NCBI GenBank assembly: GCA_964466115.1 | Contig: CAYXMH010000001.1 | Location: 84,389-116,388, forward strand | Source of the DNA: an uncultured Rhodanobacteraceae bacterium | GTDB lineage: Bacteria > Pseudomonadota > Gammaproteobacteria > Xanthomonadales > Rhodanobacteraceae | DNA length: 32,000 nt | Reading direction: 5' to 3' | In this document: piece by piece, positions 22,701 through 24,658 of the stretch | How positions within the stretch are numbered: position 1 is the stretch's first letter | Layout: every line of letters begins with the position of its first letter | The notes under the pieces: model-generated | The model's database searches: none | What the model was told of the DNA's origin: nothing | What the model saw: the letters and a program-made list of their open reading frames with translations, nothing else | Translations under genes and position numbers: made by a program

Positions 22701-24658
22701 TGGAAGAACCCTTAGCAGGCGGCAGCGCGATTGGAAGTGCGACGCGCACCCGGATCACGCCAACCTACGATACCCTCAACCGCGGCACCGGCTGGGGCAT
22801 GACGGACGACGTCTCTTCGATCGCGCAATCGCGCGTGGCGATGCGCTTTGACGACTCGATGGTTGGTATGGGACGGATTAGCCAATACGAGAGCGATCTA
22901 TTTGTTGCCACTCCAGGTTACGACCCCGTCGATGCGATGGAATACGGGGAATTGAACGCGTTAGGCTACTCAGTACCGGAAGCGCACGCAGCCTACCCGG
23001 GCATGGTGCAGACCGTGGGTCACACCGACGCCGCCCACGATCGCAACCTCAATAACATCACCTATCAGATGCCATTGACCGGAGAACGAGTGCAGTCCGC
23101 AGTAAGTTACGACAGCGCCGGGCGCGTCACGCGCGTGGACGGTTTGATTGGGGAAGGCAGCCGCACCTACGCTTACGACGAACGCAGTCGATTGACCCAC
23201 GCCAGCCGCTGGGACGCCGCCATGGGACATCAAGGCACCAAAGGCTACAGCTACGATCCGATCGGCAACCGCACTCAAGTGGAGACCGAAGACCCCTACT
23301 TCAATCCGATCAGCATCGATCGCACCGTGAGCTACGGCGCATCAAACCGACTGGACACAATCCAGATCGGTAGCACTGCACAAGCGGCAGAGCACGATGC
23401 CGCAGGCAATATGACCTTCAACCCGAGCAACGGGCAACATTACCGTTGGGATCAAGAGAACCGACTGATAAGAATCGACTATCCGATTAAAGACGCACAA
23501 CCCAGCGAGAAGTCCAAAGACTACACGCTGTTCACCTACGACAGCCAAAACCGCGTAAGACGGATTCAAGAGTTTGAGAGCGGCAGCGTGGCGGAGGACG
23601 TCAACTACGTCTGGATCGGCAGCCAATTGGCGCAAAAGCGTAGAACAGCGGACCAGCAAATCCTTCAGACTTATAACGCGGATGGCTACGCCGATCACAA
23701 CGCCGACGGAACGATCACGAAATACCTGCTAACGAGAGACTACTTAGGCAGCATCACCGGAAAAGTCAACGCCACGGGACAAATCCTGGAGCGCATCGAT
23801 TACGACGCGTGGGGTGAGCCTGAGAATCGGCGAGTTAGAGACGGAACTGGAAACCTCGTCAGCGCCGACCGTAACACCAGCACGATTCCGTTTGGCTATG
23901 CCGGATATTGGAAACACAACCGATCAAAACTCAGCATTACCGCACATCGATTCTACGATGCAAAACTCGGAAGATGGCTATCCAAAGACCCGATCGCCGA
24001 GCTCGGTGGCGTTAATCTCTATGCGTATGTGGGGAATAACCCGGTAAACTTGACCGACCCGAGTGGGCTAGACCCCAACGATCTAACACCTGAGCGCAGA
24101 GCGGAATGCATCGCTGAATTGCAACGCATCATTGAACTGACTAGAAGATCTCGAGAAATATCGGAAGGACGCGACCCGACATACAACCGCTTTGCTAGGA
24201 TTATAGAAATAATAATGAGCTTGCCAGATGCAGAACTTGATAAAAAGATGAACTTGGACAGGCTTAATGAAGCTCAAGCCGAAACGCAGCGCTTGTGGCA
24301 AACCTATGTTAGTCCATCTTTGAACTCCATAGAGGCTTGGAACAATAGCGATTGCGGTAAAGCACTTGGTGCCATTTCAAAGAAGGCAACCGCGGAGGAT
24401 ATAGAAGACCAATTTGCCGATATTCTACCGGAGCCAACGCAGCAAAGAACCAGTGGAAATTTGGCTTATGTTCCAAGTCCTCAACTCGGTCTCGGAGCAA
24501 CCGGTCTTGATATCAATAGCGGTGGGATTTGGACAGCCATCGAAGACCACCCCGTAATTACTTTTGGTACTATCGTTGGTACCGGAGGATTCGCTGCTTG
24601 GGTATTTGGGCCAACCGCCGTCGCCTACGGTTTGTTCGGAATTTTCGTTACTCCTTAA
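19796..24658 (+). CDS. Rhs/YD-repeat polymorphic toxin with N-terminal Sec-type signal peptide and variable C-terminal domain
   Basis: The ATG at 19796 sits 8 nt after AGGA; the track start is the GTG one codon earlier. The N-terminus MKIKQMSSAVLMALGMGLVLEPVFG looks like a signal peptide. Many YD repeats are present (DPYGHRAEFTYQD, YDLSGNL, YYDVQGRP, YRYDANGALL, YAYDERSRL, YSYDPIGNR, FTYDSQNRV). The Rhs-associated core reads DYDAWGEP...RFYDAKLGRWLSKDPI...NLYAYVGNNPVNLTDPSGL. Confidence 0.93.
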   Translation: MKIKQMSSAVLMALGMGLVLEPVFGGALDHAAPGATGVSATSCAGGASRNPAGCDGHGVLKYAFTFSGDLRLWDEPTSYIPAYGPWVSLGVSMNSSEVKRSPGTQAGGWNVGLSGYVTTVVNTGTTQFAEVPAPVTNAVQVYLSQGGFETYVSSSACSATSGTRCTFAKDAISQATVSRAGGDTGVLASYPAAVRAQLLDPRGFARALPGGGYEVYGGSLESIRVVPGGYEAWLSARVDRTGLALVFHYDTRPSGIKRVRSLTDASGLETHLYYPDNEPRWSASPPQGLSELLAVSPTAEGLLTSIADPYGHRAEFTYQDAWTGWVLGEPLALKTDSLRAAVLAQSGLFRLIASQDVLGVRSLIRYGCGAVILPDTLEHLRAGIRDGIAIPASCVNARSGIPLPGPTWLDPAATETPYGINRYKRVDVVSDSQHRLGWIVQNPAGNIEWKETLFGTQDIGLQSQLAALLGRGTAPSDRPAHIPVSAWNSLLRLPASAYRTGYQWSFKALDEWPDNPAFHGVDLFAMAGAPAMPPLALAHIEQYAHDYPAGSEEASLSQVKIWEKTPGESEGVYYGYENATDAATFRPQPMPGAPLTGATHAQPSPSVVARRLDDGTFQAVYQQYNEQGNPTLRVDAMGGAQETVYAPNGIDVTDLYAVRWSVDAMGLGHATHLERLAHFVVNDQGQVTREEGTLAGVGTTLDYETAAPYRLAGVTNELGLRTRYHWSTIGTDPTTRVDRLTVTAPNGLVSTSDYRQGAVVRQESQGRIREYAGQDAFGRPATVSVGGEIKVRYTYNPANLLDLQTIRNETNASEVKLITDYLGRVQWSWQTNAMGEVVSSSQRSYDLSGNLASLWTSGASTTEVVAWYYDVQGRPTLRWDTEGSQTQLSYSPTTGRLTGSQDANGQWTYYRYDANGALLSKRLSDPVSGRETVRMEYDPVYGRINRKFDAIGMTEYHYTPYQPYRLEWMEEPLAGGSAIGSATRTRITPTYDTLNRGTGWGMTDDVSSIAQSRVAMRFDDSMVGMGRISQYESDLFVATPGYDPVDAMEYGELNALGYSVPEAHAAYPGMVQTVGHTDAAHDRNLNNITYQMPLTGERVQSAVSYDSAGRVTRVDGLIGEGSRTYAYDERSRLTHASRWDAAMGHQGTKGYSYDPIGNRTQVETEDPYFNPISIDRTVSYGASNRLDTIQIGSTAQAAEHDAAGNMTFNPSNGQHYRWDQENRLIRIDYPIKDAQPSEKSKDYTLFTYDSQNRVRRIQEFESGSVAEDVNYVWIGSQLAQKRRTADQQILQTYNADGYADHNADGTITKYLLTRDYLGSITGKVNATGQILERIDYDAWGEPENRRVRDGTGNLVSADRNTSTIPFGYAGYWKHNRSKLSITAHRFYDAKLGRWLSKDPIAELGGVNLYAYVGNNPVNLTDPSGLDPNDLTPERRAECIAELQRIIELTRRSREISEGRDPTYNRFARIIEIIMSLPDAELDKKMNLDRLNEAQAETQRLWQTYVSPSLNSIEAWNNSDCGKALGAISKKATAEDIEDQFADILPEPTQQRTSGNLAYVPSPQLGLGATGLDINSGGIWTAIEDHPVITFGTIVGTGGFAAWVFGPTAVAYGLFGIFVTP
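24071..24658 (+). other. variable C-terminal (toxin-tip) region of the Rhs protein, beginning just after the DPSGL autoproteolysis motif (24056..24070)
   Basis: The DPxGL motif is encoded at 24056..24070. The following 195 codons shift to AT-rich sequence and atypical codons (AGA AGA, AGG, several ATA). Hand counts give 22/60 G+C at 24181..24240 versus 36/60 at 22381..22440 in the repeat core. Confidence 0.7.

Follow-up and report, generated by a model that had tools for sequence, protein, structure and literature searches.

A compositionally foreign C-terminal tip on an Rhs/YD-repeat protein of an uncultured Rhodanobacteraceae bacterium: a candidate membrane-acting cargo

A 32,000-nt stretch of genome from an uncultured Rhodanobacteraceae bacterium (contig CAYXMH010000001.1; the window) encodes an Rhs/YD-repeat protein whose last 195 residues form a variable tip, the subject of this analysis. 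The tip directly follows an aspartyl autoprotease motif, departs in base composition and codon usage from the rest of its gene, and ends in an uncharged hydrophobic tail. We favour, tentatively and at somewhat less than an even chance, the view that it is an autoproteolytically released, shell-encapsulated, membrane-inserting effector that belongs to no known family but would function like Tse5-CT, the C-terminal, pore-forming domain of Tse5, an Rhs effector of Pseudomonas aeruginosa (PMC9637101; PMC10684867), or like the C-terminal domain (CTD) of the bacterial teneurin-like protein (TLP) BiTLP. A membrane-acting cargo of this kind accounts most economically for an uncharged hydrophobic C-terminal segment found together with no match to an enzymatic family.

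Boundary and anatomy of the tip

Both parts that mark an Rhs/YD polymorphic toxin carrier are present in the protein, namely RHS repeats (PF05593 RHS_repeat, E=1.4e-11 in Pfam) and an Rhs-associated core domain. The features of the gene and of the tip, all on the plus strand, are as follows (residues of the tip are numbered from its first residue where so stated).

19793..24658, plus: Rhs/YD-repeat open reading frame (ORF), 1621 aa from a GTG codon
19796, plus: ATG start of the same ORF, giving the 1620-aa database protein P0001
19793..19873, plus: Sec-type signal-peptide-like N-terminus MMKIKQMSSAVLMALGMGLVLEPVFGG, predicted from hydropathy and relatives
23801..24070, plus: Rhs-associated core domain, the end of the shell (TIGR03696 Rhs_assc_core, aa 1337-1426, E=6.6e-20 in NCBIfam)
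23987..24070, plus: aspartyl autoprotease motif DPIAE-(18 aa)-DPSGL, predicted cleavage after the Leu ending at 24070
24071..24655, plus: whole tip, 195 aa (aa 1427-1621), first residue directly after DPSGL
24071..24415, plus: first tip subdomain (tip aa 1-115), which is helical and acidic, contains Cys13 and Cys95 and starts with the junction motif DPNDLTPERRAEC
24416..24550, plus: tip linker (tip aa 116-160), Pro/Gly-rich, acidic, predicted to be disordered
24551..24655, plus: Gly/aromatic tip tail PVITFGTIVGTGGFAAWVFGPTAVAYGLFGIFVTP (tip aa 161-195), uncharged over all 35 residues, 7 of them Gly, and interrupted by a Gly-Pro pair
24656-24658, plus: stop codon of the Rhs ORF

We place the tip at 24071..24655 because the core domain, the motif and the solved chains all end there. 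DPSGL (24056..24070) is the exact end of the TIGR03696 domain and completes a pair of the DPxGL-(18)-DPxGL type, the aspartyl autoprotease motif of Rhs toxins (PMC9637101); both motif Asp residues are invariant in P0001 and its relatives P0002 and P0003. Alignments to Rhs, TcC and teneurin-like chains in the PDB stop at query aa 1424-1428, with the exception of YenC2 (9c4k), which continues to aa 1437. Up to aa 1440, each 60-aa bin shows an identity to P0002 of 0.45-0.78, with 0.78 in aa 1381-1440; beyond that the identity falls to 0.17-0.28, the behaviour of a variable tip. The tip is predicted to be cut off and held inside the shell.

A preliminary description, made from the DNA and its translations, had read the tip as acidic and helical, and this agrees with the present data: the tip has 27 Asp+Glu versus 17 Lys+Arg, a single His and no Cys besides Cys13 and Cys95, and helices are predicted over tip aa 7-115. 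In the AlphaFold2 models these span tip aa 7-31, 36-49, 61-91, 94-99 and 108-114 with pLDDT (predicted local distance difference test) values of 60-84, the single-sequence and three-sequence runs agreeing on the helices, and pLDDT drops below 50 from about tip aa 123 onward. The modelling and Foldseek comparison proposed in that description therefore gave a model of the helical part, but the low-confidence tip model matched only generic helical bundles in the PDB (E of at least 0.48; at least 0.36 for PDB and BFVD together). In hydrophobicity the tail ranks second among all stretches of the Rhs protein; the last 39 residues contain no Lys or Arg, and the C-terminus reads FVTP. Its single GxxxG equals the shuffle expectation (1.08), while Gx6G spacing is slightly enriched (3 versus 0.97, P=0.04). 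For C-terminal sorting signals (PEP-CTERM, GlyGly-CTERM etc.) no NCBIfam model matches at E<=1, nor is there a basic cluster.

The earlier statement that no enzymatic toxin motif is recognisable also holds at the level of profiles, with no match of the tip to an enzymatic toxin family in Pfam, NCBIfam, PADLOC, PHROGs or the PDB. The best hit in the four profile collections is an insignificant one to DUF1441 (E=0.12), and among PDB chain sequences nothing except a designed repeat protein appears at E<=10. In an exhaustive phmmer search of 1.84 billion cluster representatives the tip matches its own protein only, and a tblastn search of plasmids and phages gives no match. Word-indexed searches with the tip or with the three-tip alignment gave no match either; they missed the tip's own protein too and are not counted, and phmmer was relied on instead. 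Genome and metagenome scans for the tip or its family return only a 23%-identical Akkermansiaceae Rhs (L001), and a DNA scan of metagenomes for the junction motif only a second copy of the P0003 3' end (L003). Judged by its sequence, the tip is a new family and a database singleton.

Composition and relatives of the tip

The tip (GC content 0.477; GC at third codon positions, GC3, 0.426) differs from the core of its own gene (GC 0.598, GC3 0.696), in which no 585-nt window has a GC3 below 0.62. It also lies below the 14 neighbouring genes, whose GC3 is about 0.605 and whose lowest 195-codon window is at 0.503. Codon adaptation relative to the neighbours is 0.568 for the tip, less than in every comparable window of the neighbours (minimum 0.612) or the core (minimum 0.629). 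Per 1000 codons, AGA, AGG and ATA occur 20.5, 10.3 and 30.8 times in the tip, 4.9, 0 and 0.7 times in the core, and 1.5, 2.6 and 7.4 times in the neighbours, an excess of 4-fold to 44-fold over core or neighbours. The preliminary description had reported an AT-rich turn after DPSGL, and its hand counts are exact (22/60 G+C at 24181..24240, 36/60 at 22381..22440); the rare codons it pointed to are present in the tip (ACT AGA AGA TCT CGA GAA and GCT AGG ATT ATA GAA ATA ATA ATG AGC), and the difference from the core persists when computed over the whole gene. By our own estimate a chance open frame is unlikely, since about 0.05 stops per codon at tip composition gives about 4.5e-5 for 195 codons.

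Under a one-change-point model the switch in GC3 has a log-likelihood ratio of 29, versus a permutation maximum of 7.6.

23777..24083, plus: 2-lnL support interval of the GC3 change point (codons 1328-1430; best codon 1340, nt 23813)

The switch thus lies inside the conserved end of the core, where homologous recombination is expected to swap tips, and the interval is likely to mark a recombination junction. The tip allele was probably imported from a relative of about 45% GC by recombination within this conserved region.

A full-length search found two true relatives only. P0002, from an NCBI genome, has a 61% identical core; P0003, from a Logan assembly (locus L002), has a 39% identical core, and its sequence is found again on L003, a JGI metagenome fragment. 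Their tips are 198 and 191 aa long, respectively, versus 195 in the window, and share the junction motif xPRDP(E/L)RCA, of which DPNDLTPERRAEC is the window version. Each of the three tips has exactly two Cys at similar positions, an acidic middle and a Gly-rich hydrophobic C-terminal tail, a kind of tail that unrelated Rhs tips lack. No His is conserved among the three collinear tips.

At the level of pairwise sequence the resemblance is faint. BLASTP detects no significant similarity between the window and P0002 tips (E=4.2). In global alignment of the same pair z is about 5.2-5.5 against full shuffles and 3.3-4.1 against shuffles within 4-13 blocks (0-2 of 300-1000 shuffles reach the score), and with the junction motif removed it is 2.7 (7/1000 shuffles), so that the collinear similarity is weak, with P about 0.001-0.007. 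Global alignments of the window, P0002 or P0003 tip with three unrelated Rhs tips give z values of -1.7 to 1.8, and reversed sequences give negative z. The similarity between the P0002 and P0003 tips comes mostly from the junction motif, and direct global alignment of the window and P0003 tips is not significant. The GC content of the L002 tip equals that of its own core. Because length and layout are the same and the weak collinear similarity to the P0002 tip is non-random, the tip looks like a fast-evolving, clade-specific type and not an unrelated cassette. The earlier idea of a swapped-in module consequently survives in part: the composition is foreign, but the module is not an arbitrary cassette, given that the tips of the two nearest relatives have the same length and layout.

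The carrier gene and its surroundings

The N-terminus is the hydropathy maximum of the whole Rhs protein (Kyte-Doolittle 19-residue value 1.85), and the N-termini of P0002 and P0003 likewise have a basic n-region and after it a hydrophobic stretch, suggesting a Sec-type signal peptide on all three proteins. No PAAR or other N-terminal Pfam match that would mark a type VI secretion system (T6SS) effector was found; a signal-peptide-like N-terminus stands there instead. The approximately 600 aa that follow the signal peptide (window 19793-21700, Rhs aa 1-635) are well conserved in P0001-P0003, invariant Cys residues included, and aa 1-635 have no Pfam match. This region may hold a clue to the display or delivery of this T6SS-independent Rhs.

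The Rhs core (19793-23800; GC 0.60-0.63, GC3 0.70) is itself GC-richer than its housekeeping neighbours (GC 0.53-0.56, GC3 about 0.60), and the gene therefore looks like a two-layer mosaic: the whole resembles an island flanked by a Na/H exchanger and degP, and the low-GC tip adds a second layer. An exact 15-nt direct repeat, ATCACGCCGCACCAG, at 19881-19895 and 24887-24901 (5006 nt apart) brackets almost the whole gene. The first copy lies in the signal-peptide region of Rhs (codons DHAAPG), and the convergent degP-like gene contains the second in its 3' end, where the minus strand encodes LVRRD; the naive expectation for 5.7 kb is about 0.015, and the repeat is probably due to chance because both copies sit in unrelated coding frames.

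Downstream of the stop codon the following features were found.

24688..24724, plus: intrinsic-terminator-like hairpin with a 17-bp stem followed by a T-run; it lies 30 nt past the stop codon
26263..24839, minus: convergent degP/mucD-like gene, whose own terminator and 3' end lie after the Rhs hairpin

With this hairpin the transcription unit is closed without an immunity gene. Hidden immunity genes, in the form of alternative-frame or antisense ORFs in and after the tip, were considered and rejected, as they cross both terminators or lack support. The upstream Na/H exchanger was likewise rejected in this role: it is an ordinary PF00999 protein of native composition and is not conserved next to P0003. 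At the P0003 locus a same-strand ORF for a soluble protein of about 151 aa lies 73 nt downstream of the Rhs gene (L002 6834-7268; L003 1695-2150); it has no family match and is a possible candidate for the immunity gene of P0003. The window contains no counterpart of this ORF and no remnants of the relatives' tips.

The other genes of the window include recBCD, genes for two GGDEF/EAL proteins, sbcB, and genes for a DUF2461 protein, a major facilitator superfamily transporter and an EpmA-like synthetase, ligA, the Na/H exchanger gene, degP, and rseA-like and rpoE-like genes. An AT-rich gap (26264-26559, 296 nt, GC about 0.42) separates the rseA/mucA-like gene (27183..26560, minus strand) from the degP/mucD-like gene and contains no rseB/mucB-like ORF, though such a gene is usual at this place in rpoE operons. 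The ORFs of a GGDEF/EAL response regulator (9007-11634) and the sbcB-like exonuclease (11435-13147) overlap by 200 nt; the true start of the TTG-initiated sbcB-like ORF is probably further downstream because its exonuclease domain begins only at aa 93.

A proposed membrane-acting cargo and its alternatives

If the tip acts on membranes, it would be the cargo of a Sec-exported Rhs/YD shell protein, which would cleave the tip off and enclose it until release. The soluble helical part would keep the tip dispersible, Cys13 and Cys95 could be joined by a disulfide in the oxidising compartment to which Sec export leads, and the tail, which is probably a short hairpin of helices interrupted at G180-P181, would partition into the target membrane, where it may oligomerise or perturb the bilayer and so cause depolarisation or leakage. 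It can be argued that the marginal hydrophobicity of the tail suits a segment that must pass SecYEG without arrest and later enter a membrane.

Several known systems offer partial parallels. Tse5-CT, which is enclosed in the Rhs shell and forms ion-selective pores (PMC9637101), resembles the tip as a cargo of unknown fold located right after the autoprotease motif of an Rhs shell, with hydrophobic segments and no enzymatic motif, and we count as a further likeness that the Tse5 shell shields the producer. Unlike the window protein, Tse5 is PAAR-like and delivered by VgrG and the T6SS, and the gene for its membrane immunity protein, Tsi5, follows. Tse5-CT is 149 aa long with several predicted transmembrane (TM) and amphipathic helices, whereas the tip has a single 35-residue, marginally hydrophobic tail. 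The tip has no sequence match to Tse5-CT among PDB chains, the presence of a Tse5-CT fragment among the deposited chains being unconfirmed. The BiTLP CTD is hydrophobic, derives from a Sec-targeted bacterial teneurin-like YD shell, and is toxic and permeabilising only when a signal peptide directs it to the periplasm (PMC13018210). The carrier in the window, with its predicted Sec signal, is similarly a YD-shell protein without an obvious delivery machine. TLPs are, however, about 2200 aa long with TIP, NHL and FN-plug parts (PMC13018210), none of which Pfam detects in aa 1-635 of the window Rhs. The TLP chains 9pt5 and 9ifo resemble the window Rhs in the Rhs-associated core alone, PDB TLP chains aligning over aa 1303-1425 only; the tip has no sequence match to the BiTLP CTD, and an immunity gene lies downstream in almost all TLPs but not after the window Rhs.

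TelE, EsxX and TspA, membrane-depolarising LXG toxins of the type VII secretion system (PMC12744356), also sit on polymorphic toxin carriers and combine a helical N-terminal part with a hydrophobic, Gly-rich segment at the C-terminus. They differ from the tip in carrier and secretion route, in having dedicated immunity proteins, and in possessing the motif that defines a glycine zipper, (G/A/S)xxxGxxxG or GxxxGxxx(G/S/T) in a hydrophobic helix (PMC12744356). The CdiA-CT ionophores of the EC93 type (PMC11630599) and colicin-type pore-forming domains are also all-helical, with a hydrophobic helical element close to the C-terminus, at the variable end of a polymorphic toxin; yet ionophoric cdiA genes are always followed by a short hydrophobic immunity ORF (PMC11630599) and the window Rhs is not. 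Neither type gives a Pfam or Foldseek match to the tip; for the colicin pore-forming profile and its 10-helix fold, Pfam has no hit at E<=1 and Foldseek with the low-confidence model finds only the generic bundles in the PDB.

A number of observations weigh against a membrane-acting tip. Immunity genes accompany Tse5, the ionophores of contact-dependent inhibition (CDI), the glycine-zipper LXG toxins and almost all TLPs (PMC9637101, PMC11630599, PMC12744356, PMC13018210), and directly 3' of the window Rhs only implausible ORFs of 29-64 aa across the terminators are found. No T6SS, VgrG or PAAR gene occurs in the 32-kb window; together with the missing immunity ORF, this weakens the reading of a classical interbacterial pore-former. 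A single 35-residue segment is small beside multi-helix pore formers, and its hydropathy is borderline (Kyte-Doolittle 19-residue maximum 1.62). A rough Hessa-type sum gives about +2.3 kcal/mol for the tail, compared with about -0.3 kcal/mol for a TM helix of the neighbouring exchanger. Neither zipper pattern occurs in the tail or in those of P0002 and P0003, and the P0002 tail contains five Glu. The tip models are of low confidence overall (pLDDT 52-59), and close homologues of the tip were not found. The preliminary description had proposed a hydrophobic glycine-zipper tail and a membrane-inserting or pore-forming effector. Of the former, the uncharged hydrophobic end stands but the zipper does not; the latter retains the backing of that end and of the lack of an enzymatic family, set against the missing immunity and T6SS context and the marginal tail.

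Most characterised Rhs tips are enzymes, and the helical subdomain (tip aa 1-115), the only part modelled with moderate confidence, might be a toxin from an undescribed family that acts as an enzyme or binds a target, with the tail serving only in membrane targeting or translocation. There is a precedent in the DNase effector Tde1, whose translocation needs a hydrophobic Gly-rich (glycine-zipper) segment (PMC10240207). We nevertheless regard this as unlikely: the subdomain is small and all-alpha, has no profile or fold match, shows neither a conserved His nor an acidic catalytic motif when the three collinear tips are compared, and is no better served with an immunity gene. A different way of accounting for the missing immunity gene is that the effector, still membrane-active, is not aimed at siblings but at a eukaryotic host, a predator, non-kin membranes or lipids that the producer lacks, in which case no immunity gene would be needed. 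The missing T6SS, VgrG and PAAR genes and a Sec signal conserved in the clade fit such a role, and YD-repeat toxins without a T6SS are reported in symbionts (PMC4612132). An immunity gene could, however, sit elsewhere in the genome, and the ORF downstream of P0003 could be one, so that we give this proposal a similarly low probability.

The tail might instead be a stop-transfer segment, C-terminal anchor or sorting signal that tethers the exported Rhs to the membrane, the tip being structural and not toxic. Although a hydrophobic segment at the extreme C-terminus of a Sec substrate, recurring in three relatives, is what an anchor would look like, no basic residues flank or follow it before the terminal FVTP, its hydrophobicity is marginal, the P0002 tail carries its five Glu, no NCBIfam sorting signal matches, and cleavage at the conserved autoprotease motif would cut such an anchor off the shell; the proposal is very improbable. 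Much the same low standing applies to a decaying or inactive orphan, imported without its immunity gene and its function. The database singleton status, foreign composition and missing immunity gene would suit it, but the frame stays open for 195 codons in AT-richer DNA and is followed by a terminator of its own, and its layout has been kept in common with P0002 and P0003. Scarcely less doubtful than these last two is a broader picture that goes beyond the membrane-acting cargo itself, in which P0001-P0003 would represent a rare clade of T6SS-independent, Sec-exported Rhs shells whose cargo of about 195 aa keeps its layout while its sequence diverges, with no immunity gene in this genome at least, and which would serve as a membrane effector against non-self (eukaryotic host, predator, other lipids) or use a YD-shell delivery route not yet described.

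Hydrophobic membrane-acting Rhs tips are already documented and uncharacterised tips are very common; the carrier is otherwise an ordinary Rhs/YD polymorphic toxin, and what sets it apart is the combination of predicted Sec export with no T6SS context and no immunity gene. Should the tip not prove membrane-active, it would be one more among very many uncharacterised polymorphic-toxin tips. If it is membrane-active, it would be the second or third hydrophobic toxin to need a YD shell as its chaperone, on a carrier that is Sec-dependent, T6SS-free and without immunity, and its 35-residue tail would offer a compact test case for how marginally hydrophobic segments can pass SecYEG and yet insert in a target membrane.

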